Shown: positions 3,232 to 51,270 of the stretch, in pieces
Numbering within the stretch: the stretch's first letter is position 1
How the letters are laid out: every line of letters starts with the position of its first letter
NCBI GenBank assembly: GCA_002687175.1
Contig: NYZP01000001.1
Span: 839 to 64,838, forward strand
Length of the DNA: 64,000 bases
Reading direction: 5' to 3'
Source of the DNA: Parcubacteria group bacterium
Lineage (GTDB): Bacteria; Patescibacteriota; Patescibacteriia; Buchananbacterales; UBA6539
Translations under genes and position numbers: made by a program
The notes under the pieces: generated by a model
Database searches by the model: none
What the model was told of the DNA's origin: nothing
Seen by the model: only the letters and a program-made list of their open reading frames with translations

Positions 3232-3621
3232 ATGGCTAGAATCGCAGGAATTACATTACCTAAAGATAAACGAATAGCAGTAGGTTTAACCTACATTTTT
3301 GGTATAGGCCGTAACGTCTCTACAAATATTTTAAAAAAGGCTGATGTCAGTCCAGACATTAGAGTAAAAGATTTAACAGAAGATCAAACAAATAAACTAC
3401 GAGAAATTATTGAAAAAGATCATAAGGTTGAAGGGGAACTAAAAAGAGAAGTTTTATTGAATGTTAAAAGGCTAAAAGAAATTTCCAGTTACCGTGGTTC
3501 TAGACATTCGAAGAAACTACCAGTACGTGGTCAACGCACTAAAACTAACAATCGAACTGCCCGAGGTAACGTTCGTAAAACCATGGGTTCTGGCCGTAAA
3601 GGGGCTGCACAGAAAACTTAA
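3232..3621 (+). CDS. rpsM: 30S ribosomal protein S13
   Basis: [28 protein letters not shown]... is the S13 signature. Its position between rpmJ and rpsK fits. Confidence 0.9.
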
Positions 3622-9451: not shown

Positions 9452-10015
9452 ATGAACAAAAACTATTTAATTATTGCCATTGTAATCGTTGTGGTTATTA
9501 TTGGTGGAGTTGTTCTCTACAATGGTGATTCCACTAATAACAACCAGAATACGAACAGTGGCGCAACAACTAATAATCAACCGGTAGTTAAAGAACCTAA
9601 ACAAGACAAAGCTCCGGCTTTTAGTTTACAAGACTACGAGGGCAATACCGTCAGTTCAACTGACTTTGCTGGCAAATCACTAATTGTTAACTCCTGGGCC
9701 AGCTGGTGTCCATTTTGCGTTGATGAACTTCCAGACTTTGCAACTATTCAAAGTGAATTCAAAGATGACATAGTCATTATTGCCATTAACCGAGTTGAAT
9801 CAATCAGTACCGCCAAAGGATTTTCTGATAAATTAGGTGTTAGTGGTAAATTAGTTTTACTATTAGACCCTGGTGATTCTTTCTACCAATCAATCGGCGG
9901 TTTTTCCATGCCGGAAACAATCTTTGTCGATACTGAAGGTAATATTGTTGAACATAAACGTGGCATAATGTCGCTAAGCCAAATTCGTTCAAAAGTTAAT
10001 CAATACTTTAAATAA
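9452..10015 (+). CDS. membrane-anchored thiol:disulfide oxidoreductase (TlpA/ResA-like thioredoxin)
   Basis: TM anchor followed by a thioredoxin fold with the WCPFC active site (LIVNSWASWCPFCVDELPDF). Confidence 0.7.
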   Translation: MNKNYLIIAIVIVVVIIGGVVLYNGDSTNNNQNTNSGATTNNQPVVKEPKQDKAPAFSLQDYEGNTVSSTDFAGKSLIVNSWASWCPFCVDELPDFATIQSEFKDDIVIIAINRVESISTAKGFSDKLGVSGKLVLLLDPGDSFYQSIGGFSMPETIFVDTEGNIVEHKRGIMSLSQIRSKVNQYFK

Positions 10016-19170: not shown

Positions 19171-19962
19171 ATGGCATCAAAAAATAAAATTTCAATTGTA
19201 ATTGTTTCTTGGAAAGTTAAAGATTTGTTAAATAAATGTTTGACCTCTATCTTTACATATCAACAAAATCTAGATTTAGAAGTGATTGTGATCGATAACA
19301 ATTCAAATGATGGTACAGTCGACATGGTTAAAAATAATTTTCCCAAAGTATTGTTAATTAAAAACAAAAAAAATATTGGCTTTGCTAAAGCCAACAATCT
19401 AGGGATTGCCAAGGCCAATGGAAATTATATTTTAGTTTTAAATCCTGACACAGAAATTTTAAAAAATACCATTCAAGAAATGGTCAGCTTTATGGATAAA
19501 AATCCTCAGGCTGGTATTGTTGGTCCAAAACATTTAAACCCAGATAAAACAATCCAACCTTCAGTCAGACGATTCCCCAGTTTACTGGCTGTCTTTCTAA
19601 TACTTATTAAACTGCCTAAAGTCTTAAACTTAAAATCAGTGAATAAATTTTTGGCAACCGACGTCGACTATAATAATACTCAACCAGTTGATCAGGTCGC
19701 TGGCTCATTTATGTTTATTCGTCAAGAAGTATTAGCTAAAATTGGTAATTTTGATGAAAAATTTTTCATCTGGTTCGAAGATGTTGACCTGTGTAAAAGA
19801 GCTAAAAGTGCTGACTGGCAAATTTGGTATAACAATAAATCGCAAATTATTCATTATGGGGGACAAAGTTTTAAACAAAGATTAACTGTTAAAAAACAAC
19901 TACTTTTCTTTAAAAGTGCCTGGTACTATTTCAAAAAACACGGATTTATCTATAAAAATTGA
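19171..19962 (+). CDS. glycosyltransferase family 2
   Basis: ISIVIVSW...VIVIDNNSNDGT, DxD-like (NPDTE) and the FEDVDLCKR motif typical of GT2 rhamnosyl- and galactosyltransferases. Confidence 0.8.
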   Translation: MASKNKISIVIVSWKVKDLLNKCLTSIFTYQQNLDLEVIVIDNNSNDGTVDMVKNNFPKVLLIKNKKNIGFAKANNLGIAKANGNYILVLNPDTEILKNTIQEMVSFMDKNPQAGIVGPKHLNPDKTIQPSVRRFPSLLAVFLILIKLPKVLNLKSVNKFLATDVDYNNTQPVDQVAGSFMFIRQEVLAKIGNFDEKFFIWFEDVDLCKRAKSADWQIWYNNKSQIIHYGGQSFKQRLTVKKQLLFFKSAWYYFKKHGFIYKN

Positions 19963-20275
19963 TTTTTATAGCGATAAAGGTTACAATATAAATATCACTG
20001 TTAATCTGAACCAAAGCAAGGAGACCCTCCTATGAGAAATAGAATCTTCAACCTAAAGAAAGGACGGTGATTATCTCTTCTTACAGCTCTGCTGTGAGTC
20101 GTACCTTGTTGTTTAACTGATCTTTCCAACTTCAGTCACTATGACTGTTTGGCACAACAATAAGCATACTCACGAAGGGAGGGAGGGGAACAAGTGTCGA
20201 AAACATCGGAAGTTGAAACACCTCTAGTTGTAGTATAAATTGTGGAACAGACGACCAATGGAGGATACTCAAGCT

Positions 20276-20701
20276 ATGCGTAAGACATTGATGTTTATGT
20301 GTACCTGCGCCGTAGCGCTTGCATTCGTTGCCCTGACGGCTGAGGCAGAGATTATATCTGTCACGAACAAAACCGCTATCGGCGTAACCACAGCGCAGGA
20401 CGCATCGAACCCAGCCCTGACGGCAACCTCGTATTGCAAGACTACGGGAACGATGATTGCAGCTATGCAGACGCAGAGTCCAGCTTCGGACATAGATCTC
20501 TTGCAGCTCGACACGGTCGAGAATACCACGGCAGAACCTCGCGACGCGGTCCAAGAACAGGAGGTCAGTGGCTTCGCCGCGAACATGAGACCGGCGATGG
20601 CGGACAGCTTCTTGCATTCGGCGATGATGATGGCCGAGAACTTGACGGCGAATCCCGCGAACACGGTAAATGAGGTGAGTGGCTTCGCCGCGAACATATG
20701 A
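20276..20701 (+). CDS. small secreted Thr/Ala-rich protein in GC-rich island (141 aa, signal peptide)
   Basis: GGAGGA SD 10 nt upstream. MRKTLMFMCTCAVALAFVALTAEA|E is a signal peptide. About 57% GC against about 33% for the flanks. Contains an internal EVSGFAANM/I repeat. In frame within the track ORF at 20240. Confidence 0.45.
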   Translation: MRKTLMFMCTCAVALAFVALTAEAEIISVTNKTAIGVTTAQDASNPALTATSYCKTTGTMIAAMQTQSPASDIDLLQLDTVENTTAEPRDAVQEQEVSGFAANMRPAMADSFLHSAMMMAENLTANPANTVNEVSGFAANI

Positions 20702-20710
20702 GACCGGCGA
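20564..20710 (+). repeat. two copies of a ~34-bp direct repeat (gt[c/g]agtggcttcgccgcgaacat(at)gagaccggcga) 77 bp apart
   Basis: Read directly: copy 1 at 20564-20597, copy 2 at 20675-20710. The second copy spans the stop codon of the island ORF. Confidence 0.7.
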
Positions 20711-21093
20711 CTATCACTGCCGCCAATCACTTCGCGCTGAACTGGGTGTTCAGCCGTAATGGTAGCGCTTCTCGCGCACTTTCTTCGGCTCCAGTGGCTC
20801 TGTTTCCTGGTTGATGCGTGAATCGTATCACACGAGTCTCTGACTAGCCTAAGTAACATTACAATTTACCCCTTACGCAGACGTTGACCTCACGGTTCGA
20901 CCTGCGTCCTACATTCCCCCAGACTTCAATAACAGGACAGCTTAGCAGCAGCCCAAGTTAAAGATTTCTGAGGGGTCTTTTTTTTATGATTGACTTTTTG
21001 TAAAATAAATGATAGTTTCAAGCTTAGAAACTAAATGATCTTTAACTTTTCATCTTGATTGACATCTCACCGTCAGTGGAGGGAGAATTTTCA

Positions 21094-24327: not shown

Positions 24328-24340
24328 GTAGCTTAATTGA

Positions 24341-24369
24341 TTGACTTTTGACTAATAATTAGCTAAATT
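24341..24369 (+). promoter_or_regulatory. candidate promoter for small-peptide operon (TTGACT-17-TAAATT)
   Basis: Read directly. Divergent from the def promoter. Confidence 0.3.
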
Positions 24370-24430
24370 AGAATTAAGTTGCTCCTTGACTTTTAAAATA
24401 CCCCCTTACAACAAAGAAGGAGACATAGTA

Positions 24431-24601
24431 ATGGATAGCGTATTGATTGACAGCGGGTGGGATCTATTTTTGTTGTTTGCTATTTCATGGGTTGCAACAT
24501 TTCTGCTGGCTTTTGTAGTTATGGCAACCACTCATTTTTTCTTTGGCCCTTGGTTGAGAAGGCTACTGTTCAGAACTACTATCCAAGTAGCACTAAGCTA
24601 A
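24431..24601 (+). CDS. small hydrophobic peptide 1 (56 aa, 1 TM)
   Basis: SD AAGGAG lies 8 nt before the ATG. MDSVLIDSGWDLFLLFAISWVATFLLAFVVMATTHFFFGPWLRRLLFRTTIQVALS. Its stop overlaps the next SD (TAAGGAG). Confidence 0.55.
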   Translation: MDSVLIDSGWDLFLLFAISWVATFLLAFVVMATTHFFFGPWLRRLLFRTTIQVALS

Positions 24602-24611
24602 GGAGAATACA

Positions 24612-24701
24612 ATGGATATGTATTGGTGGGTTGTCATCCTTGGAATGGCTGGATTTATATTCCTTGGTGGTCTTTGGGAAAAATTCAAAAACCGCAAGTA
24701 G
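24612..24701 (+). CDS. small hydrophobic peptide 2 (29 aa, 1 TM)
   Basis: SD AAGGAG lies 6 nt before the ATG. MDMYWWVVILGMAGFIFLGGLWEKFKNRK. Confidence 0.5.
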   Translation: MDMYWWVVILGMAGFIFLGGLWEKFKNRK

Positions 24702-24712
24702 AAAGGATAATC

Positions 24713-24811
24713 ATGAAGTCGCTAGGTGAGATAATCGCCGTAGTATTAGCGGTTGGGTTTGTTACGTTATACGAATTTTTTCTAGCAATTAGGAAAATGA
24801 CAAACACGTAA
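24713..24811 (+). CDS. small hydrophobic peptide 3 (32 aa, 1 TM)
   Basis: GAAAGGA lies 5 nt before the ATG. MKSLGEIIAVVLAVGFVTLYEFFLAIRKMTNT. Confidence 0.45.
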   Translation: MKSLGEIIAVVLAVGFVTLYEFFLAIRKMTNT

Positions 24812-24832
24812 GACCATAGAAGGAGGTGGGTG

Positions 24833-25003
24833 ATGACTTTGTTAGAGTGGGGAATACTGATATTGGCCGCAATGTTTATCTGCAATATTGTGGCTACTGG
24901 CATGTTCGGTCGAATAACTGGTGTAAAAAGTGCTGCTGTTCTACTTTCGGTGGGAGCAATTTATTGCTTAATCTGCCTAGCCAGGGGTGATGAAGAAATA
25001 TAG
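24833..25003 (+). CDS. small hydrophobic peptide 4 (56 aa, 2 TM)
   Basis: SD GAAGGAGGTG precedes the start. MTLLEWGILILAAMFICNIVATGMFGRITGVKSAAVLLSVGAIYCLICLARGDEEI. Confidence 0.55.
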   Translation: MTLLEWGILILAAMFICNIVATGMFGRITGVKSAAVLLSVGAIYCLICLARGDEEI

Positions 25004-25017
25004 AAAGGAGGTGAATA

Positions 25018-25197
25018 ATGCCTTGGTACGGATGGGTGGTAATTGTTTGGTTTTCCATAAACACATGGTTAGCCGTAGATCAAGTAAGGAGTGATAGATT
25101 TAGTCTAAAAGAAACACCAATGGTGTTTTTGTTTGGCATACTGACTGTGGTTTGGTTCGTCATTGATTATATGGTTGAGCAAAGTAGGCGGATGTAA
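25018..25197 (+). CDS. small hydrophobic Trp-rich peptide 5 (59 aa, 2 TM)
   Basis: SD AAAGGAGGTG lies 4-6 nt before the ATG. MPWYGWVVIVWFSINTWLAVDQVRSDRFSLKETPMVFLFGILTVVWFVIDYMVEQSRRM. Confidence 0.55.
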   Translation: MPWYGWVVIVWFSINTWLAVDQVRSDRFSLKETPMVFLFGILTVVWFVIDYMVEQSRRM

Positions 25198-25302
25198 CCT
25201 AACACCGGTTACTGACTAAATTGCTCGTTCATTTCTCTTAGCTCAACACATTTGTGGGGAGCTTTTTTTTATATATTAAGTCTGTTATAATTTTAAAGAA
25301 CT

Positions 25303-27875: not shown

Positions 27876-28061
27876 TTATTTGGGGATCCGTACTGATTTT
27901 CCCTGAGCATTTCTGATTTGAGCAAGTGCTTTGTCAGCACACTTCGGGCAATAGCCGTGACTAACACCAGGCCCTAAATCTTCCTTAGCTGCCAGAGACC
28001 ACGTAGCACTACCTTCGGGTCCTCGACGGATTTTTTTACAAACGCAACACTGCACTATCAT
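27876..28061 (-). CDS. small zinc-ribbon protein (61 aa) in GC-rich cassette
   Basis: MIVQCCVCKKIRRGPEGSATWSLAAKEDLGPGVSHGYCPKCADKALAQ... has CCVC...CPKC. About 50% GC. Start overlaps the upstream gene by 4 nt (ATGA). Confidence 0.5.
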   Translation of the reverse strand: MIVQCCVCKKIRRGPEGSATWSLAAKEDLGPGVSHGYCPKCADKALAQIRNAQGKSVRIPK

Positions 28062-28642
28062 GTATTAGTCTCTCCCTCCGATTGGCCGATAATTGAACGG
28101 CAGACCGGACAACAGCTGTGCTCCAAAAGCAAGGTAACAGTCTTGCCATTTAGCTGCTGCCAGGTTCCGTCTTGGCAAACTTTCTGACAACGACCGCAAA
28201 CCGGAACCAACTCTGGCTCTTGACCATCAGCGATCTCAGACGTCAGCTCGTCAACGTGCATTATGAACCAAACCCATGATCCTTGATCTAAGGAAAGTAC
28301 TGGAGTACCTGCCTCAATCTTGTCGGGATCTTCGGCCAGTACAGCACTTGAAAAAACAGCAATCTTCGTCTTGGGATCAAGTGCTTTCATTTGTTGAATC
28401 AACTGACTGCTACTGGCCAAATCGATAACGGTCAGATTAATAACCATTCGAAGCAGTCGCCACTGTTCGAAACAGTCACTTTGATCAACGGCCATCAGCA
28501 CATTAAAATGTGCTTCCGTCAGCTTTGACTCAAGCTGCTTGCGCATCTCTTCATCTTCGTGCAAGACCAACACAGTCCTGGGTTGGTTCCCTTCAAACAT
28601 TGTCCCTAGATCGTCTATTTCTGTGCATTGTTTCATGAGCAA
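28058..28642 (-). CDS. receiver (REC/CheY-like) domain protein with C-terminal Cys-rich zinc-ribbon-like region
   Basis: SD AAAGGAGG lies 8 nt before the ATG. The N-terminal region (VLVLHEDEEM...VIDLASSS...KIAVFSS...K) has the REC acidic pocket pattern. C-terminal VPVCGRCQ...SCCPVC. About 50% GC. Confidence 0.45.
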   Translation of the reverse strand: MLMKQCTEIDDLGTMFEGNQPRTVLVLHEDEEMRKQLESKLTEAHFNVLMAVDQSDCFEQWRLLRMVINLTVIDLASSSQLIQQMKALDPKTKIAVFSSAVLAEDPDKIEAGTPVLSLDQGSWVWFIMHVDELTSEIADGQEPELVPVCGRCQKVCQDGTWQQLNGKTVTLLLEHSCCPVCRSIIGQSEGETNT

Positions 28643-35680: not shown

Positions 35681-36583
35681 TTATTTATGTTCCCCACAAA
35701 GGTTATTAGCTTCTTCAATAATTTTAGTTTTATTTTTTAGACCTAAACTGTTAAGTCTTTTATCCTTACTCACTAACTGCGAGCACATAATAACTTGTTT
35801 TTTTAATAGCTGCTTCTTTTGATATTCATTTAAGCTAAGTAATGCCGTAACCGGATATAAACCTTGATGATGAACCATCCCCTGCAAACTCTTTTGGTTA
35901 TCAGGATACGACCAAGCAATAACTTTAATTCCAACACATTTACAATAATGAATAGCATTGGAAGTCATTTCCGTGTTAGTTACCAGCCAACTCTCTAATT
36001 TGGCATTTTTGGGTTTAGCGCCTTTTTTTACCTTTCGTTGCCATTGATCTTGAATATCTAAAAACCGACCATAAGTATACAGGGCATCCTTACTGCCAGT
36101 CTTGCGACCAGGACGAGAATGAAACTTAGCTTCGATAATAGCATGGATCCCCTCCTTCGGCTTTTCAGCTATTAAATCAACCTCATGAGAAATACATTTA
36201 CCTTGAACAATAACATTAGTTTTAACTTTATAATCTAAATGTCGTAACAACTCTGCAAAATACTTCTCGAAGGGAAAGCCATCTGGTCCCAAACGCATTA
36301 TCGCCTTTTTTAAATTATACCGAGCAGCAAATGACTGATTAGCCGACTTTAACATACCAAAAGCTAACTGATGAATTTTAGCAGTACTAACACCTTGATC
36401 TATATGGGACTTAATTTTTCCAATAATATCATCAATCAATTTGGTAGAGGCCCCCGAATCAATCATTGACTTTCTGAGTTTAGAAACGGAAAATGGTTCT
36501 TTATTACCCTCAGCTTTAGTTACTAATACTTTTTTAAACATAAAATTATTTAAAGAATACCTTTTCACCAAAACGTAAATCAA
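35681..36583 (-). CDS. ATP-cone domain protein fused to restriction-endonuclease-like (Mrr-cat/PD-(D/E)xK-like) domain
   Basis: The N-terminus (KVLVTKAEGNKEPFSVSKLRKSMIDSGAS) is ATP-cone-like. The central EVDLIAEK...HAIIEAKF resembles a PD-(D/E)xK nuclease core. Confidence 0.5.
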   Translation of the reverse strand: MIYVLVKRYSLNNFMFKKVLVTKAEGNKEPFSVSKLRKSMIDSGASTKLIDDIIGKIKSHIDQGVSTAKIHQLAFGMLKSANQSFAARYNLKKAIMRLGPDGFPFEKYFAELLRHLDYKVKTNVIVQGKCISHEVDLIAEKPKEGIHAIIEAKFHSRPGRKTGSKDALYTYGRFLDIQDQWQRKVKKGAKPKNAKLESWLVTNTEMTSNAIHYCKCVGIKVIAWSYPDNQKSLQGMVHHQGLYPVTALLSLNEYQKKQLLKKQVIMCSQLVSKDKRLNSLGLKNKTKIIEEANNLCGEHK

Positions 36584-37424
36584 TATATTCTAACTCTGAA
36601 GGATTCTTAACTTTTTCTCGTAATATATTAAGTAGTAATGTAGTTTGTTCATTGGCTGATCTATCAAGACGAAAACGTGCCTCCCAACCAGTCTCAGTAA
36701 TTAAAATAATCTCTTGTGGATGATCATTAGTAATATAGTTAAGGATTTTAAAATTAGCACGATCTTTTATCTCGTTGGTCAGTTCTACGATAAACTCAAC
36801 TTGTTTTGCTGATAAAACGTTCTGTCCAATTACTACTTCTTTATTCAAATGATGATGAATAATAGGATACTTACCACTACTTGATTCTGGTCTAATTAAT
36901 GTTGTCTCCCCTTCACCAGGCTGAATAATTAAATCATTCTCGGTTGCTTCTTTAAGCACTACACCATCTAAACCGATAAAATACCGCTTATCACTACTGA
37001 CCCAGACTAGATTAGCTATTTTTTCAGCTATAACAATTTCCAAACTATCAGGATAATTCTTGTTTATGCTAACGTTATCAAATGAGAGTGAATCCTCTAG
37101 CAAATTTTTCAAAGTACTTTTTTTAAGGAAAAGTAAATTATTTTGGCTAAAAAATAAAAATCTTCTTTTAGCTGTTTGCATGTCAACAATTTGTAAAATA
37201 TCATGCTGACTGATACTACTATTCCCTTTAACAGTAATATTCTCCAGCTGAAGTAAGCTGCTGGAGTTTAACAAATAAGATCCAATAATTATTAAAATAA
37301 TTAAAAATAATCTACGATATTTAAATCTCTTGGTTTTTTCAACTTTTTCTTTTTTGGGAAAAAAGGGATTCCTAAAATTCTTTTTCTGATAGTCTCTTTT
37401 TTGTCTCATAATTAACGATACCAA
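36546..37424 (-). CDS. ftsQ: cell division protein FtsQ/DivIB (POTRA)
   Basis: N-terminal basic region, a single TM, then the POTRA-like LENITVKGNSSISQHDILQIV. Located immediately downstream of ddl. Confidence 0.7.
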   Translation of the reverse strand: MVSLIMRQKRDYQKKNFRNPFFPKKEKVEKTKRFKYRRLFLIILIIIGSYLLNSSSLLQLENITVKGNSSISQHDILQIVDMQTAKRRFLFFSQNNLLFLKKSTLKNLLEDSLSFDNVSINKNYPDSLEIVIAEKIANLVWVSSDKRYFIGLDGVVLKEATENDLIIQPGEGETTLIRPESSSGKYPIIHHHLNKEVVIGQNVLSAKQVEFIVELTNEIKDRANFKILNYITNDHPQEIILITETGWEARFRLDRSANEQTTLLLNILREKVKNPSELEYIDLRFGEKVFFK

Positions 37425-38503
37425 ACCTCTTTTGGTTGATACTCAGTACTTAATTTATTTTTTTCGTCATAGCGTTCAATCGCCAAATCAATCAATTTTT
37501 CTAACAGCTTAGAATAAGCTAGTCCTGAGGCTTGCCACAACTTTGGATACATAGAAATTGAAGTAAAACCGGGAATGGTGTTAGCCTCATTTAAATAAAC
37601 CTTATGTCCTTTCTTAGTGACCAAAAAATCAATTCGTGCCATTCCGGACAAATTTAAAACTTTAAAGGCCTCTACGGCATAAACCTGAATCTGCTTTATC
37701 ACTTTATTTGGTAATTTAGCAGGTATCACCTCTTCGGAACTTCCATCAACATATTTAGCATCATAATCATAAAATTCATTTGACGAAATTATTTCACCAG
37801 GTACTGAAGTCTTGGGATTATCATTACCTAAAACGGCAATCTCAATTTCATGAGCATTATCAATCCCCTGCTCGACAATAACTTTAGTATCATACTTAAC
37901 CGCGTCATTAACTCCTAAAATTAGTTCTTTGTGATTGTGACATTTAGAAATTCCGACACTGGAACCTAGATTAGCCGGTTTAGCAAACATCGGAAATTTG
38001 AGCCCCCTGCCCTTGATCTGTTTTAATATCTTACTTTTATTATTTTTCCAATCTTTTGCTAAAAACCAATCGTACTTTACGCTGGGTATCTTAACTTGAT
38101 CACAGAGTTGCTTTTGAACCACTTTGTCCATGGCGACTGCTGATCCCAAAACTCCAGCCCCAACATAAGCAATATCTGCCATTTCCAACATTCCTTGAAC
38201 TGTACCATCCTCGCCATATGAACCATGCAGTACAGGAAAAACAACATCAAAACGTTTAAGTAAACTATCAGGAATTAATTCAGCACCTTTTTCTTTGATT
38301 TTTCCCGACTTCAAAGAGATAACTGGATTTGTGGTAATCCACTTACCATCTTTAGTAATGCCAATAGGAATTACTTGATACTTTTTTCTATCCAAAGCTT
38401 TCATTACTGATTGAGCAGAAACTATTGAAACTTCGTGCTCTCCTGATTTTCCACCAAAAATAACACCTACTTTAATCTTACTATTTTTACTTATTTTAGC
38501 CAT
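37412..38503 (-). CDS. ddl: D-alanine--D-alanine ligase
   Basis: KVGVIFGGKSGEHEVSIVSAQSV... and the ATP-grasp motifs (PVLHGSYGEDGTVQGMLE, FAKPANLGSSVGISK). Confidence 0.9.
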   Translation of the reverse strand: MAKISKNSKIKVGVIFGGKSGEHEVSIVSAQSVMKALDRKKYQVIPIGITKDGKWITTNPVISLKSGKIKEKGAELIPDSLLKRFDVVFPVLHGSYGEDGTVQGMLEMADIAYVGAGVLGSAVAMDKVVQKQLCDQVKIPSVKYDWFLAKDWKNNKSKILKQIKGRGLKFPMFAKPANLGSSVGISKCHNHKELILGVNDAVKYDTKVIVEQGIDNAHEIEIAVLGNDNPKTSVPGEIISSNEFYDYDAKYVDGSSEEVIPAKLPNKVIKQIQVYAVEAFKVLNLSGMARIDFLVTKKGHKVYLNEANTIPGFTSISMYPKLWQASGLAYSKLLEKLIDLAIERYDEKNKLSTEYQPKEVWYR

Positions 38504-38520
38504 TTTTATGTAATTACTGT

Positions 38521-39044
38521 TGACAATTATTAAATAGTGTGGTTAACCTACGATCATGCAAATGTGGTTAGTGAATACCGCCGAACAGGTATATACTACC
38601 ACATCAACCGCTCTACGGAGCACAAGGAGGACACAGCGCGAAGAAGAAGAGCACGGCGTCCGGTGCGACGACGAACATGGCCTTCTCCGGCGGGTAACGA
38701 CCCAGCCGGCGGCGCGGGGAGACGTTGCGGAAGAGCAACACAAAAATGGCAGTAAAGAGCGCTGGTGCACCAGCGCCGAAGACGAACGGCACCGGTTTTT
38801 TTCTACCGGAGCCACACAGGTAACACCTAGCTCGCGACGCGTTTCGGTCAAGTTGCTCCCACCCTCCGACCGTCGATCCGCTCAACGATTCGAAATTCGA
38901 CAGGTCGCTGGTTCCAGGGAAGATTACGAGCGCTCCTCCTGATTTCACGTAGGATTCGATGGCCGAAATGGATTCTTCGGCGTAGGAGTCGATATCCAAA
39001 GCGAGGACTACTGGATACGGAATCAGTTGGTCGGTGGGGCGGAT
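38521..39044. other. GC-rich (~58% GC) non-core island between ddl and alr; probable degraded foreign insert
   Basis: TTGACAAT at its left end and GGTCGGTGGGGCGGATTTATTTTTT at its right end. No ATG-initiated ORF with an SD. The track ORFs here start at TTG and have skewed R/A/P/G-rich composition. Confidence 0.4.
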
Positions 39045-40160
39045 TTATTTTTTATACACCCTTTCAAGCTCTGAATTTATTCTGGTTACTACTTCGTAAT
39101 TAATTGTTCTAAGTTTATCTGCCATTTCATCGGCAGTATTTTTTTTACCTACTAACTCAACTTCATCCCCTGCTTTAATACTTTTTATTTTAGAAACATC
39201 AATCATGGTTAAGTTCATGCATACACGTCCAATCACCGGACATTTCTTATTTTTAACAATAACCTCACCATTATTAGATAAATGCCGATCATACCCTTCC
39301 CAGTAACCAACTGCTATAACTGCCATTTTTAACCTTCTGGGGGCAGTGTAAGAGCAACCATAACCTACTTTAGTGCCTTTACTTATTATTTTAACTTGTA
39401 AAACTTTAGTCTTCCAGGTTAGTGCTGGTTCTAAACTTAACCAAGGATAATGTTTTAAAGCAATCTTCTCGGCTTGTTCTGAAGGCCATAATCCGTAAAG
39501 TGATAAACCCAACCTAATTAAATTAAAATGTGCTTGCGGTTCAACTAAACTGGCAGCGCTACATCCAAAATGCACTATTGGTATTTTTATTTTGTCATTC
39601 TGAACTTGTTTCAGAATCTGATTAAAGACTTTTAGTTGATATTTAGTATACCCTACATTTTCCTCAGAAGCGGCAAAGTGACTATAAATTCCTTCAATTT
39701 TTATATTTGGTAACTTATCAACTTGTTTAATAAACTCTACGGCATCTTTTACCAGAATGCCCACGCGAGTTGTGCCAGTGTCAATCTTAATATGCACTTT
39801 GGCAGTTTTTTTTAACTTCTTAGCAGTGCCTGATATTAATTTAGCATAACTTAAACTGTAAATTGGTAAATCAATATTTTGCTTAATTCCCTCTTTTAAA
39901 TAGCGACTTTGGGCATAACTCAAAACAAATATTCTTTTTTTAACATTGTGTTTTCTAAGTTCTAATGCTTCTCCTAAACTAACCACTCCTAGCCACTTTA
40001 CCTTGGGTAAAATCAGCTTTGTTACCTCAATCATGCCGTGTCCATAGGCGTTACTTTTGACGATAGGCATGACTTCAACGCCTTTACCAACAATTTTTTG
40101 GTATTGTTTTAGATTATATAAAATAGCAGATTTTGATATTTCAACCCAAGAATTGTACAT
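39045..40160 (-). CDS. alr: alanine racemase
   Basis: PLP-lysine motif VKSNAYGHG. C-terminal beta-domain with a conserved Y (GYWEGYDR). Confidence 0.9.
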   Translation of the reverse strand: MYNSWVEISKSAILYNLKQYQKIVGKGVEVMPIVKSNAYGHGMIEVTKLILPKVKWLGVVSLGEALELRKHNVKKRIFVLSYAQSRYLKEGIKQNIDLPIYSLSYAKLISGTAKKLKKTAKVHIKIDTGTTRVGILVKDAVEFIKQVDKLPNIKIEGIYSHFAASEENVGYTKYQLKVFNQILKQVQNDKIKIPIVHFGCSAASLVEPQAHFNLIRLGLSLYGLWPSEQAEKIALKHYPWLSLEPALTWKTKVLQVKIISKGTKVGYGCSYTAPRRLKMAVIAVGYWEGYDRHLSNNGEVIVKNKKCPVIGRVCMNLTMIDVSKIKSIKAGDEVELVGKKNTADEMADKLRTINYEVVTRINSELERVYKK

Positions 40161-40200
40161 CTAATTATAGCTAATTTTAGCTGTTATTTAAACTTTACTA

Positions 40201-40229
40201 TTGACAAATCTGTAATTATATGATATATT
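40201..40229 (+). promoter_or_regulatory. sigma70-like promoter of small GC-rich cassette (TTGACA-17-TATATT)
   Basis: Read directly. Followed by a 5'UTR hairpin TCTCTTT-taatcacg-AAAGAGA and a strong SD. Confidence 0.45.
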
Positions 40230-40287
40230 ATTATATTCTCTTTTAATCACGAAAGAGAAAACCCGGTACGAGAAGGAGGTGCACATT

Positions 40288-40440
40288 ATGTCGCGTAAAG
40301 AACTGCAGGACGCAGCAACTAAGTTGCTGAGGGAAGACGGATCCCGGTGGGATGGCAGAAAAAAATCTGCCGTAAAATCCGGTCAGACCAGCTTCGAAAT
40401 GCGAATGCAAGTCGAAGCGGTTGGCGCTGGTAAACACTAG
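40288..40440 (+). CDS. small hydrophilic protein (50 aa) in GC-rich cassette
   Basis: SD AAGGAGGTG lies 6 nt before the ATG. MSRKELQDAATKLLREDGSRWDGRKKSAVKSGQTSFEMRMQVEAVGAGKH. About 53% GC. Not in the ORF track (under 60 aa). Confidence 0.45.
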   Translation: MSRKELQDAATKLLREDGSRWDGRKKSAVKSGQTSFEMRMQVEAVGAGKH

Positions 40441-40467
40441 CGACTAACCAACCGAACACCCGTTCTA

Positions 40468-40516
40468 CCGACCCACTACTTTATATTACTTGATATGGTG
40501 GGTCGGATTTATTTTT
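40468..40516 (+). terminator. terminator of the small cassette (CCGACCCAC-21nt-GTGGGTCGG + ATTTATTTTT)
   Basis: Read directly. The T-run overlaps the serS stop codon on the opposite strand. Confidence 0.5.
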
Positions 40517-41765
40517 GCCTATTTTTTTCTAATTTTTTAAAACCACAGTATTTTTGTAACACTTTTGGAATATCAACTGTACCATCCTTATTTTGATTTT
40601 GTTCTAAGATAGCTGGAATTAATCTGGAAGTGGCTAACCCCGAAGCATTTAAAGTGTGAACAAATTCATTTTTCCCAGTTGTAGTATTTTTAAAACGAAC
40701 ATTGCCGCGCCTGGCTTGATAGTCCAAAGCATTCGAGACACTGCTAACTTCTTTGAAAGTATTCATACTGGGTAACCAAACTTCTATGTCAATTGTTTTG
40801 GCCATGGCGGCCGAGGCATCTTGGGCTGCCAACAGAACCGATTGGAAATGTAACTTTAAATCATCAGTTAGCTTTTCGGCATTTTTCCTTAACTCTTCAA
40901 AATTGTCCCAAGAATTTTCCGGATGAGCAAAATGAAACATCTCTATTTTATTAAATTGATGTCCGCGAATCATTCCTCGTTCTTCTTTACGATAAGATCC
41001 GGCTTCGCGACGAAAGCAAGCTGAGTAGGCATAGTACTTTAAAGGTAAATCTTTCTCAACCAAAATTTCATCCCGGTGATAATTACCCAACATCATTTCC
41101 GACGTAGCATTTAAGCAAGTACCATCTTGAGTCCAAAAAAGATCATCTTTAAATTTTGGAAGATGTCCTGAAGTGTAGGCTGATTGTTCAGTTAACAAAA
41201 ATGGTGGAATTAAAAAGGTGTACTTGTTCTTCTGATGGAAATCAATAAAGTAATTTAACAAAGCCCATTCCAGTAAAGCGCCTTGACCTTTATAGACCCA
41301 GAAGCCAGTCCCCGACATTTTAGCGCCACGTTCGTAATCAATAATATCGAGCTCAGTGGCCAAATCATAATGATCTTTATTTTTAAAACTAAATTTAGAT
41401 TTTTTACCAAATGTTTTTAAAACTTTATTTTTTTCTTTACCACCAGCCACCACGTCATCAGCAGTAATGTTTGGTAGTTCCGAAATTAATTTATTAAGTT
41501 CTGTTTCAACTCGGTTCACTTTCTCATCAAATTTTTTAATATCAGCACCAACTTTTTTCATCTTTTTAATAATATCAACAGTTGGCTTGGTTTTAGAAAA
41601 CTTGTTACGCTCACCCCGTAACAGCTCAACTTTTTGCAATAACTCTTTTCGTTTATCGTCAAGCTTAATAATACTGTCCAAATCTAAATCTTTTTTGGCC
41701 ATTCGCTTTAACAAAGACTTTTGAATAGTCTTTTTATCTTGCCTGATTTTATTGATGTCTAGCAT
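40509..41765 (-). CDS. serS: serine--tRNA ligase
   Basis: N-terminal coiled-coil arm and class II motifs (FRREAGSYRKEERGMIRGHQFNKIEMF). Confidence 0.9.
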   Translation of the reverse strand: MLDINKIRQDKKTIQKSLLKRMAKKDLDLDSIIKLDDKRKELLQKVELLRGERNKFSKTKPTVDIIKKMKKVGADIKKFDEKVNRVETELNKLISELPNITADDVVAGGKEKNKVLKTFGKKSKFSFKNKDHYDLATELDIIDYERGAKMSGTGFWVYKGQGALLEWALLNYFIDFHQKNKYTFLIPPFLLTEQSAYTSGHLPKFKDDLFWTQDGTCLNATSEMMLGNYHRDEILVEKDLPLKYYAYSACFRREAGSYRKEERGMIRGHQFNKIEMFHFAHPENSWDNFEELRKNAEKLTDDLKLHFQSVLLAAQDASAAMAKTIDIEVWLPSMNTFKEVSSVSNALDYQARRGNVRFKNTTTGKNEFVHTLNASGLATSRLIPAILEQNQNKDGTVDIPKVLQKYCGFKKLEKNRQK

Positions 41766-50599: not shown

Positions 50600-51140
50600 C
50601 ATCTACTAACATTTTACCACTTATAAAAATAACGTCAATACACAAAAGTGGATAAATTGTGATCTAGTTAATTTTTTCTAAAGTTTTATTTAAAGTATTA
50701 TATTTATGATGTTTCTTTTGATTATCTATGTATTTTCTTACTATGGTAAAATCTTTTTCCGATAGGCTAAAAACACCATACCCTTTCTGCCAAAAAAAAT
50801 TTTGATTATTTTGTGAAATATTTATATAGCGTGACGAGCTTCCTTTAATTCTATTGACAAATTCAGAAATGCTAACCTTCGGAGGTATATGACGTAATAA
50901 ATGGACATGATCATCTATATTGTTAAATGTAAAACTCTTACCATGACACTCAATTATTTTTTTTTGGAATGTAATTTTTTATTAATTTTTCAATTGGATC
51001 AGTAATTAAAGGTTCTCTATTCTTAGTAGACCAAATAATATGATAATATAATTTATGAAAAACATTTGACATATCTTTATTATCGCCCGGGCATTCATGC
51101 CCGGGCTGAGATTTTACAAATGTCCCTAAAGGGACATAAT
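50600..51140 (-). mobile_element. IS200/IS605-family insertion sequence (tnpA only), with subterminal hairpins
   Basis: Carries a Y1 HUH transposase ORF. There are perfect palindromes GCCCGGGCAT-tc-ATGCCCGGGC (51085-51106) and ATGTCCC-taaa-GGGACAT (51118-51135) upstream of tnpA, as at IS200/IS605 left ends. The boundaries are approximate. Confidence 0.6.
50664..51072 (-). pseudogene. tnpA: IS200-type Y1 transposase TnpA, frameshifted at an A9 tract
   Basis: N-terminal part MSNVFHKLYYHIIWSTKNREPLITDPIEKLIKNYIPKK. After the A9 run at 50957-50965 the frame changes to ...DDHVHLLRHIPPKVSISEFVNRIKGSSSRYI...FWQKGYGVFS, with the HUH motif and catalytic Y. The total span is 409 nt, not a multiple of 3. 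Confidence 0.65.
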
Positions 51141-51222
51141 TTTTAAATTTAGCACTCCCTTATCTTACTACGCTCTAATTTTATCTTTAAACCAAGGAAG
51201 AGAATATTACAGCCCTGCCCTT

Positions 51223-51270
51223 CAGGGCTGGGCTAATTCAGGGCTGGGCTAATTCAGGGCTGGGCTAATT
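51223..51270. repeat. 16-bp tandem repeat (cagggctgggctaatt x3) preceded by inverted copy agccctgccc
   Basis: Read directly. It lies between the IS end and the mrdA terminator. Confidence 0.8.

Follow-up and report, generated by a model that had tools for sequence, protein, structure and literature searches.

The two GC-rich islands that flank the alanine racemase gene (alr) of a Parcubacteria group bacterium are probably the contents of two paralogous expression slots of old origin, in which cargo turns over fast, partly through the capture of foreign DNA, and not members of a mobile cassette family; we assign this reading a probability of about 0.6. According to this reading, the serS-alr and alr-ddl spacers would be two old paralogous slots in a Buchananbacteria-like Patescibacteria lineage, each holding a small + strand transcription unit, divergent relative to its left neighbour and convergent with its right one. 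Each slot would have a resident frame, with a conserved TTTTAGC-N18/19-TTGACAA plus a −10 element on the 5′ side and, on the 3′ side, an intrinsic terminator adjoining the convergent gene's stop codon, and the GC-rich filling would turn over fast between species.

Two GC-rich islands flank alr

The window analysed comprises 64,000 nt, positions 839–64,838 of the forward strand of contig NYZP01000001.1 (assembly GCA_002687175.1). Its mean GC content is 36.6%, and 51 of its 2550 250-nt segments reach at least 50% GC, in five places that include island A. The − strand carries ddl (D-Ala-D-Ala ligase; 37412–38503; Pfam Dala_Dala_lig_N/C, E = 4e-71), alr (39045–40160; Pfam Ala_racemase_N/C, E = 8e-59), and serS (seryl-tRNA synthetase; 40509–41765; Pfam tRNA-synt_2b and Seryl_tRNA_N). 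Island A lies in the alr-ddl spacer (slot A) and island B in the serS-alr spacer (slot B). The positions confirm the initial annotation in placing GC-rich islands, both on the + strand, on either side of − strand alr, and several of its measurements need correction. Specifically, the GC content of island A (38521–39044) is 55.0% rather than about 58%, and the value of about 52% given for island B is nearly reached by its core (40260–40505, 50.8%) but not by the island as delimited (40201–40516, 43.7%). Likewise, the TTGACA of island B does start at 40201, but that of island A starts at 38520, not 38521. The promoter scan and the sequence also identify a promoter-like site for alr (TTTAAA-17-TATAAT, 40164–40192, − strand), the −10 element of which ends 3 nt ahead of the alr ATG, and the alr transcript looks leaderless.

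The islands share their ends but not their interiors

The 5′ ends of the two islands are alike beyond chance. The combination TTTTAGC-N19-TTGACA occurs at exactly two sites in the 64 kb, at 38494 and 40175, where 0.03 are expected. In slot A, this 5′ module spans 38494–38525 (+ strand, by motif counts), with the −35 element at 38520–38525, and the first codons of ddl (ATGGCTAAAATAAG) form its outer part. In slot B, the 5′ module and promoter span 40170–40229 (+ strand, by promoter scan and motif counts), with a palindrome, GCTAATTTTAGC, at 40170–40181, followed by N19 and the −35 TTGACA at 40201–40206. When 70 nt of each island are anchored on TTGACA, 40 positions are identical (null 23.6 ± 3.7), the highest similarity among the 903 pairs of TTGACA sites in the window.

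The 3′ ends match at 19 of 20 positions (GGTGGGKCGGATTTATTTTT), with the form GGTGGG[G/T]CGGATTTATTTTT. This 20-mer is the top non-self blastn match within the window for each island, the exact 13-mer CGGATTTATTTTT is found in the window at the two island 3′ ends only, and the alr and serS stop codons, read as TTA on the + strand, fall at identical positions within the motif. The shared terminal motifs noted in the initial annotation are thus real, and larger than first described. Each island also has an AAGGAGG (38624 in A, 40273 in B), but the CACA said to follow it is too short to carry meaning.

The pairwise alignment that had been proposed as a check on the two islands returned similarity at their ends only; the interiors are unrelated. 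That A and B are a same-orientation GC-rich pair with matching ends therefore stands, but their interpretation as members of one GC-rich cassette family, mobile or repeatedly inserted, with promoter and terminator ends, in intergenic sites of the cell-wall cluster, is very improbable. The significant match of the ends is what such a family would offer in its favour, but only two copies exist in the 64 kb: no further unit with both end motifs was found in the window, and neither island has a further copy there, in 30 related loci, or in viral contigs. Among the related loci, one (L011), whose sequence is the same as that of the window, has the 3′ motif; the others lack it, as do 2.9 million viral contigs. 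In every relative the 5′ module is confined to the starts of ddl and alr, and in slot A it includes the first codons of ddl itself, indicating that it is anchored to the host genes; the idea that the cargo brings its own 5′ module is thereby contradicted.

Nor do the islands have the ends of a transposable unit. There are no terminal inverted repeats, the promoter module and the terminator half not being inverted copies of each other, and no target-site duplications or flanking direct repeats are seen in the sequence around the islands. No integrase, transposase, or reverse transcriptase is encoded within ~6 kb, and Pfam searches of the ORFs between 31.8 and 46 kb returned only housekeeping genes or family-less proteins, with no recombinase. 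A MITE-like repeat family was rejected on the same grounds: no shared internal sequence, no terminal inverted repeats, and no target duplications.

Island B has the anatomy of a complete small gene

Island B contains a promoter, a correctly spaced ribosome-binding site (RBS), an ORF, and a terminator, the anatomy of a small-protein gene, and the initial description of an intact mini-gene holds in every part. The promoter, TTGACA-17-TATATT with a TG-extended −10 element at 40224–40229, matches the consensus at 11 of 12 positions and is the top match in 7 kb; the centre of the palindrome GCTAATTTTAGC lies near −60 relative to it. The transcript is predicted to begin with a hairpin (TTCTCTTTT..AAAGAGAA, 40236–40259, + strand), and a similar hairpin is present in the unit of one relative (L018). 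The ORF list and a scan for Shine-Dalgarno (SD) sequences place the coding part at 40273–40440 (+ strand), with a perfect SD, AAGGAGGTG, at 40273–40281, 6 nt ahead of the ATG of a 50-codon ORF (40288–40440; product MSRKELQDAATKLLREDGSRWDGRKKSAVKSGQTSFEMRMQVEAVGAGKH). The terminator (40468–40516, + strand, by fold and sequence) consists of CCGACCCAC, a 20-nt loop, and GGTGGGTCGG, together forming a hairpin at 40468–40506, followed by ATTTATTTTT, and its T-run contains the serS stop codon (40509–40511), in agreement with the overlap first noted. The promoter scan found no − strand promoter scoring at least 10/12 inside the island.

The full set of elements matches stand-alone small-protein genes, which encode sORFs of at most 50 aa with their own promoter, a strong SD, and a terminator. 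The RBS is the same as that of the small membrane-protein operon of the window itself (24.3–25.3 kb), and six of the seven AGGAGG-N4-9-ATG sites in the window open ORFs of at least 30 aa. The ORF differs from such genes in being an orphan, in its GC3 of 0.53, about twice the 0.2–0.3 of host genes, and in its unusually structured mRNA. Conservation of the 50-aa ORF had been named as a test of the initial annotation, but protein searches across billions of proteins and family searches returned no homologue. Judged from its sequence, island B is most likely a working unit that makes an abundant small protein: a strong sigma-70-type promoter would produce a transcript with a stabilising 5′ hairpin, a consensus RBS, and a 50-codon orphan ORF, which would fold very stably and end at the hairpin/T-run terminator.

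Island B could instead be a non-coding RNA, given the four neat hairpins within its ORF, the unremarkable length of that ORF by itself (p ~0.08), and the lack of a homologue. In the broader form of this alternative, which we consider unlikely, both islands are functional structured RNAs whose GC content serves stable helices in an AT-rich genome; they might be stable sRNAs or might regulate, in antisense, the convergent transcripts of alr and serS, and the ORF of island B would be incidental. Consistent with it, the RNA of island B folds far more stably than its shuffles (z = −7.4), and the ORF segment alone gives z = −4.7. The perfect AAGGAGGTG 6 nt before an ATG, arranged as in the small-protein genes of this genome, argues against it, as does the absence of Rfam matches: Rfam 15 gave none at the gathering score in the window and seven related loci, and chance-level matches only (E = 2.6–3.3) at a relaxed threshold. 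No tRNA or tmRNA was found.

A type I toxin-antitoxin system would likewise have its small ORF in an intergenic region, on an mRNA with extensive folding and an SD that can pair with a downstream segment, as it can in the fold of island B. The 50-aa product, however, is K/R/E/D-rich, charged, and hydrophilic, with no hydrophobic stretch; it is not a membrane peptide, which argues against a type I toxin, and no antisense RNA gene was identified.

Island A is a broken unit that carries a foreign gene fragment

Island A would be the same type of unit as island B, in damaged form. Downstream of its −35 element, the candidate −10 element is weak (TAACCT, 38544–38549, 18-nt spacer) and failed the promoter scan. 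A 5′ hairpin (GTGGTTAGTGAATACC...GGTATATACTACCAC) is predicted at 38564–38602 (+ strand) by MFE folding, and the adjoining left part of the island (38600–38827, + strand, by sequence inspection) has 60–80% GC. It contains an AAGGAGG (38624–38630) without a start codon, a perfect 18-nt palindrome (38759–38776), and a T7 run (38796–38802), and it folds with z = −2.7; searches, which were insensitive, found no homologue in any frame.

The right part of the island is a 205-bp internal fragment of a BatA/VWA-type gene (38828–39033, − strand, ~69 codons), identified by phmmer and tblastn. The codons in the alr frame that had looked protein-like are this fragment (phmmer E = 2.9e-20). It corresponds to residues 378–446 of a 679-aa protein (P0002) with BatA_N and VWA_2 domains, the gene of which lies in a moxR-DUF58-batA operon on a contig of 57% GC. 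The amino-acid identity is 67–69% (46 of 69 by tblastn) and the nucleotide identity 71.5%, with 51, 60, and 37 matches of 69 at the first, second, and third codon positions. The mismatches are mostly at third codon positions, and the reading frame, with a GC3 of 0.61, remains open, indicating that the two lineages diverged while coding and that there has been little decay since arrival. The edges of the fragment are sharp at the DNA level; the right edge, with a possible overlap of 1–4 nt at the junction, lies at most 1 nt from the start of the shared 20-mer, so that the fragment adjoins the conserved terminator half of slot A. On this evidence at least 205 bp of island A is foreign DNA, evidently from a bacterium of ~57% GC.

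The fragment is antisense to the promoter of island A and holds ~10% of the gene. Compared with BatA/VWA proteins of aerotolerance operons (PF07584 and PF13519), it has no start or stop of its own, and Pfam and NCBIfam searches found no domain in it, BatA_N and VWA included; a functional BatA/VWA protein was rejected on these grounds. Under the non-coding RNA alternative the fragment would have been co-opted, but it has no excess structure (z = +1.2), and the fold of the entire island is marginal (z = −2.0 to −2.3).

The 3′ module of slot A, GGTGGGGCGGATTTATTTTT (39033–39052, + strand, by blastn and sequence), contains the alr stop codon (39045–39047) and consists of a terminator stem's 3′ half and the T-run; the stem lacks its 5′ half. 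Island A is therefore a broken unit, with a weak −10, an SD without a start, and no 5′ terminator half. No SD-linked start codon was found, in line with the initial annotation, which saw no ATG ORF; its view of island A as a larger, degraded relative of island B survives as to degradation, but in its right part lies a piece of an unrelated foreign gene in antisense orientation. In the two-slot reading, the original cargo would have been replaced by foreign DNA, with the loss of whatever start codon there was and of the terminator stem's 5′ half; the island is thus probably a decaying remnant. At most, it yields an RNA with poor termination that extends in antisense into the alr 3′ end.

A likely route, inferred from these features, would be uptake of short DNA by competence, followed by illegitimate recombination at an insertion-tolerant site. 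Naturally transformable bacteria acquire short foreign DNA by illegitimate or homology-facilitated illegitimate recombination. Island A resembles such acquisitions in being a sharp-edged internal gene piece of 205 bp, from a compositionally different donor, at a tolerated intergenic site, and differs in that the insertion would lie inside a pre-existing small transcription unit and not in plain spacer. Conserved com genes occur across the CPR phyla, and Saccharibacteria have been shown to undergo natural transformation (PMC10633639).

An assembly artefact, in which chimeric joins brought in the GC-rich pieces from other metagenome organisms, is scarcely credible. The source genome is indeed metagenome-derived and the BatA piece clearly comes from a different, GC-rich organism, but a JGI contig of 2052 bp, deposited separately, matches 37409–39460 with 100% identity, across both junctions of island A. 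Host synteny continues on either side, and many independent MAGs and contigs have analogous islands with native-looking promoters and terminators in these two spacers.

The same two spacers in relatives

We compared the locus in about 20 relatives with 45–72% Alr identity. In the presence/absence comparison that had been suggested, the two spacers are empty or hold different units. Slot A is filled in ~10 distinct loci and empty in four; slot B is filled in ~11 and empty in three or four. The fillings are GC-rich promoter-terminator units of differing sizes and mostly unrelated sequences, preceded by the same 5′ module. Together with the foreign DNA in island A, these unrelated or missing units fit the earlier suggestion of repeated acquisition. 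Empty spacers lack promoter and terminator as well as cargo, and two relatives (L021 and L023) have UTRs and a terminator in common but different ORFs; both observations would fit mobile cassettes.

Nearly all B-slot units in relatives contain an SD and an ORF of 34–99 aa, a further point against the non-coding RNA alternative. Sequences are not conserved between relatives. These ORFs differ in sequence between nearly all relatives, a departure from ordinary small-protein genes, and several encode single-pass membrane peptides, a likeness to type I toxins. Their GC3 is 0.38–0.77 (≥0.5 in all but one), compared with 0.2–0.3 in host genes. In favour of structured RNAs, all 18 related units folded gave negative z-scores, many between −3 and −7, and conserved segments are shared by the A-slot units of L003 and L013 and by the L007 and L010 units, which lie downstream of a PBP2-like gene. 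The segment common to L003 and L013 is a conserved 3′ domain, and such conservation suggests that some A-slot units of relatives are functional rather than junk.

A further alternative holds that the slots are dedicated capture-and-express sites, at which short foreign, perhaps host-derived, DNA is put between a regulated promoter and a terminator; the output would be antisense RNAs or new small proteins. The discrete 205-bp foreign fragment exactly between frame elements and antisense to the promoter, the foreign-like GC3 of the cargo in nearly all units, the conserved frame around variable cargo, and the palindrome near −60 of the B promoter agree with this proposal, which we nevertheless regard as decidedly improbable. 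Only one fragment has been identified, and its orientation has a 50% chance; translating the other islands in six frames yielded no second one, in searches that were insensitive, one having missed P0002 and another its positive control. Moreover, the terminator hairpin was lost through the insertion and no start codon remains, which points to damage rather than design, and no dedicated enzyme gene was found nearby.

Relation to known systems and wider meaning

Integron cassettes resemble the slot units in their small, compositionally odd, mostly orphan ORFs, array-like position, and hairpin-forming 3′ end. However, the slot units each have their own promoter, and their ends are tied to the starts and stops of host genes; integron cassettes were rejected, as inspection found no RYYYAAC/GTTRRRY cores at the unit ends and Pfam searches found no intI nearby (31.8–46 kb). 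GC-rich ncRNA genes of AT-rich genomes share with the islands long GC-rich intergenic regions and strong folding, but the islands have no Rfam family, island B has coding signals, and part of island A is foreign protein-coding DNA. Screens based on GC content and intergenic length serve ncRNA discovery (e.g. PMC6429828, PMC8632094).

Patescibacteria have tiny, tightly packed genomes with many orphan genes and depend on host cells. The alr locus provides a concrete case of short foreign DNA that landed within a small transcription unit, beside a slot whose orphan mini-gene has foreign-like codon usage, and the cargo of both slots differs in nearly every relative. If general, GC-rich islands in these AT-rich genomes would mark gene birth from captured DNA, and the captured fragments could indicate donors, possibly hosts; the hosts of uncultured epibionts are otherwise very hard to identify. 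A bolder version, to which we give a low probability, is that the clade keeps fixed expression slots, anchored to core genes and made of a terminator and a promoter module that is conserved and possibly regulated, and that short foreign DNA, perhaps from the host cell, is repeatedly put into them and expressed. Such slots would yield, de novo, small orphan proteins and antisense RNAs, and would preserve a legible record of what the epibiont has fed on.

For annotation, the 128-aa ‘hypothetical protein’ that a public metagenome places on island A arises artefactually from GC-rich DNA and a gene fragment, and the 50-aa ORF of island B merits an entry.

GC-rich islands flank alr and share their ends

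The window has a GC content of 36.6%, and its host genes have a third-position GC (GC3) of 0.2–0.3. Pfam searches identify ftsQ (36546–37424), ddl (37412–38503), alr (39045–40160) and serS (40509–41765), all on the − strand. The nearest public Alr relatives, from genomes and metagenomes, are Patescibacteria, several of them labelled Candidatus Buchananbacteria, with 45–72% identity (72% for the relative nearest to the window), and the gene order serS-alr-ddl-ftsQ is kept in them. The two GC-rich islands that the initial annotation had described on either side of alr are present at those places: island A (38521–39044, 55.0% GC) in the alr|ddl spacer, hereafter slot A, and island B (40201–40516, 43.7% GC; core 50.8%) in the serS|alr spacer, slot B. 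Both are indeed GC-rich, but the GC values first assigned to them were somewhat too high, most of all for island B.

The common terminal motifs proposed for the two islands are real and longer than originally described. At the 5′ end, the composite TTTTAGC-N19-TTGACA, which we call the 5′ module, occurs at exactly two sites in the window (38494 and 40175), compared with 0.03 expected. Over 70 nt anchored on TTGACA, islands A and B are alike at 40 positions, compared with 23.6 ± 3.7 under the null, which is the top score among 903 pairs. At the 3′ end, marked by GGTGGGKCGGATTTATTTTT, the sequence GGTGGG[G/T]CGGATTTATTTTT matches at 19/20 positions and is the best non-self match of each island within the window; the 13-mer CGGATTTATTTTT occurs exactly at these two 3′ ends only. 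The stop codons of alr and serS occupy the same position within the 3′ motif. Between the ends, the interiors of the two islands give no alignment.

Island B is read as an orphan small-protein gene

All components of the intact mini-gene previously suggested for island B were found. Specifically, the promoter (TTGACA-17-TATATT with TG upstream, 11/12) is the top match of a promoter scan within 7 kb, a hairpin (40236–40259) sits at the predicted 5′ end of the transcript, AAGGAGGTG is positioned 6 nt upstream of the ATG of a 50-codon ORF (40288–40440), and the terminator consists of a 9-bp GC-rich stem and a 20-nt loop followed by ATTTATTTTT. The arrangement AGGAGG-N4-9-ATG occurs at seven sites in the window, six of which open ORFs of 30 aa or more, and the ribosome-binding site of island B is that of the small membrane-protein operon of the window. 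We read island B as an orphan small-protein gene with an unusually stable mRNA. The main alternative is a non-coding RNA: the length of the ORF alone is not significant (p about 0.08), the predicted fold of the transcript has an energy of −109 kcal/mol compared with −71 ± 5 for shuffles (z = −7.4), and the ORF segment folded alone still gives z = −4.7. The 50-aa product has no homologue in a word-indexed search of 5.8 billion proteins, Pfam, PHROGs, NCBIfam or viral contigs, and exact database look-ups found neither Alr nor the 50-aa ORF on record.

Island A carries a fragment of a BatA/VWA gene

Island A has the −35 hexamer and only a weak −10 element (TAACCT, 18-nt spacer), the latter not passed by the promoter scan. 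Its AAGGAGG at 38624 has no downstream start codon, and nothing nearby pairs with its 3′ stem half GGTGGGGCGG. The only candidate for a terminator hairpin, a weak long-range pairing (38860–38873/39029–39042, 11/14) within the foreign fragment described below, was judged coincidental. Long ORFs are open in four frames, as expected of GC-rich DNA.

The stretch of island A that had been noted as protein-like is a real protein fragment. A phmmer search of 1.84 billion representative proteins matches it to P0002, a 679-aa protein with BatA_N and VWA_2 domains (E = 2.9e-20), encoded in a moxR-DUF58-batA operon on a contig of 57% GC; in tblastn, 69 codons of island A align with P0002 residues 378–446 at 67% identity. 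A word-indexed protein search with the same frame returned only the identical ORF of a JGI contig and missed P0002; negatives from that tool, including the one for the 50-aa product of island B, are weak. A cluster look-up of P0002 returned neither names nor taxa. At the DNA level, the fragment is 71.5% identical to the P0002 gene, with 51, 60 and 37 matches out of 69 at the three codon positions; its frame is still open and its GC3 is 0.61, indicating that the two lineages diverged as working genes and that the fragment has decayed little since arrival. The identity begins and ends abruptly, at about 38828 and 39033, and the right edge lies at most 1 nt from the start of the 20-mer common to island B. 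The BatA homology at first seemed to reach about 38790, a reading that was dropped because the DNA alignment shows a sharp loss of identity at about 38828. The fragment shares its reading frame with alr, which chance alone would give in one case out of three.

The left part of island A (38600–38827, 228 nt) reaches 80% GC and has a fold z of −2.7, unlike the BatA fragment, which has no excess structure (z = +1.2). It has no detectable relative in a six-frame protein search, for which the word-indexed tool is insensitive, or in Pfam, and island A has no blastn match among plasmids and phages. The separately deposited JGI contig (L011) is identical across 37409–39460, which argues against a chimeric join. 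The JGI annotation of this contig calls a 128-aa 'hypothetical protein' at 462–848 (window 38613–38999, − strand), which is the BatA fragment running on into GC-rich junk and no gene. Inside alr, about 70 nt past island A, a terminator-like hairpin with T8 lies on the antisense strand (39119–39146, +); this hairpin could terminate transcripts running on from island A, but its T-run is simply alr Lys/Asn codons read backwards.

Units of varied content occupy both spacers in relatives

In loci from relatives, either spacer can be short or filled. The alr|ddl spacer measures 9–52 nt in L002, L007, L009 and L012 and holds a unit of 230–900 nt in L001/L014, L003, L004, L005, L010, L013, L018, L021 and L024; these units are mostly GC-rich (about 40% in L018 and L021). 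The serS|alr spacer measures 8–92 nt in L005, L007, L010 and L013 and holds units of 300–1200 nt in L001, L003, L004, L006, L009, L012, L018, L021, L023 and L024. All units are oriented as in the window. A strong TTGACA promoter, in many cases combined with TGGTATnAT, is found in every unit, as is a hairpin/T-run terminator adjoining the stop of the convergent gene. All-against-all blastn nearly confines their similarity to the first 60–126 nt and a few 3′ ends. The 'empty' serS|alr spacer of L013 (1117–1208), a 92-nt AT-rich near-perfect long hairpin and likely a bidirectional terminator, illustrates a slot without a unit.

Nearly all B-slot units carry a Shine-Dalgarno sequence and an ORF of 34–99 aa with a GC3 of 0.38–0.77, at least 0.5 in all except L009; the ORFs are mostly unrelated, and some encode membrane peptides. 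L021 and L023 have a 5′ UTR and terminator in common, with compensatory changes, but differ in their peptides. L003 and L013 have a 3′ domain in common in the A slot. Folding gives negative z for 18/18 related units, many at −3 to −7, and a purely RNA-based function is possible for island B and some of these units. No known RNA was found in the window and relatives by Rfam, at gathering and E-value thresholds, or by ARAGORN. Six-frame segments of 10 islands have no Pfam match, and the small ORFs have none in PHROGs or NCBIfam; for the islands other than island A, such negatives come from tools of low sensitivity. A tblastn search of six-frame segments against plasmids matched none, the BatA positive control included, and is uninformative; an amino-acid-composition score for 'protein-like' frames gave no discrimination. 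Literature searches turned up no account of Patescibacteria islands of this kind.

The 5′ module is anchored to host genes

In relatives, the 5′ module reads [G/T]CTAATTTTAGC, 18–19 nt, TTGACAA, and is present at both slots, to which it is essentially confined in these loci. At slot A, the start of ddl (ATGGCTAAAATAAG) makes up the outer part of the module; at slot B, those letters are non-coding and constitute the palindrome GCTAATTTTAGC (40170–40181) within the alr promoter region. Its position at both slots and its overlap with the ddl start tie the module to host genes; it is no end travelling with cargo, and slots A and B look like ancient paralogues.

The initial annotation had proposed a family of GC-rich cassettes, mobile or repeatedly acquired. 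The mobile-cassette model fails on four counts: no further copies occur in the 64 kb of the window, related loci or viral contigs (which also lack the 3′ motif and the 50-aa and 141-aa ORFs), the interiors are unalike, neither island has terminal inverted repeats, and the 5′ module is fixed to host genes. None of the ORFs between 31.8 and 46 kb of the window is identified by Pfam as a recombinase, transposase or reverse transcriptase.

In the best reading, slots A and B are resident sites of expression whose cargo turns over fast. Slot B would hold an intact unit; in slot A, foreign DNA would have replaced the earlier content, an event that removed the start codon and one half of the terminator. 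Entry by uptake is plausible: the CPR phyla have conserved com genes, Saccharibacteria have been shown to be naturally transformable (PMC10633639), and horizontal gene transfer into Patescibacteria is documented (PMC12455944). We infer a subsequent integration step. The data would also allow a dedicated capture-and-express system, a proposal based on a single fragment.

The palindrome lies in the spacer of an alr promoter-like site (TTTAAA-17-TATAAT, 40164–40192, −), about 60 nt upstream of the predicted start of island B; only 3 nt separate the end of this site from the alr ATG, and alr looks leaderless. The letters of the palindrome equal ddl codons 1–5 in the other slot, and their presence at both slots could reflect a shared operator or a duplication relic. 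Several relatives (L003 about 9930–10000, L012 about 2090–2139, L024 about 3430–3452) have short TACGAAT-type repeats in the stretch that separates the alr start from the 5′ module; the window lacks them.

Other compositional features

A third GC-rich unit (19959–20985, +, about 55% GC) comprises a TTGATT-17-TACAAT promoter, a Shine-Dalgarno sequence, a 141-aa ORF (20276–20701, GC3 0.68) with a signal-peptide-like N-terminus, and a T-run terminator. Near 20563 and 20674, the unit carries the copies of an imperfect direct repeat (about 35 nt); the ORF has no Pfam, PHROG, NCBIfam or viral-contig relative. Adjacent ORFs of 61 and 194 aa at 27876–28642 (−) have 47–50% GC and a GC3 of 0.48, well over host values, with faint Pfam hints only (Cys-rich/zinc ribbon, response-regulator receiver); they are possibly another acquired segment. 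In L007 (5140–5500) and L010 (4800–5030), GC-rich units bounded by a promoter and a terminator lie downstream of a PBP2-like gene and have segments in common, such as AACGGCAAAGCTCC; they look like a conserved non-coding RNA absent from Rfam. A perfect tandem repeat (51221–51270) of the 16-nt unit TTCAGGGCTGGGCTAA, in 3.1 copies, lies in an 870-nt AT-rich spacer near a GC hairpin (about 51085–51108). Finally, an operon at 24340–25260 (+) contains five tandem small membrane-protein ORFs (about 29–60 aa), all of which have an AAGGAG(G) ribosome-binding site. The operon accounts for the strong positive GC skew of this region and shows small-protein genes to be common in the genome.
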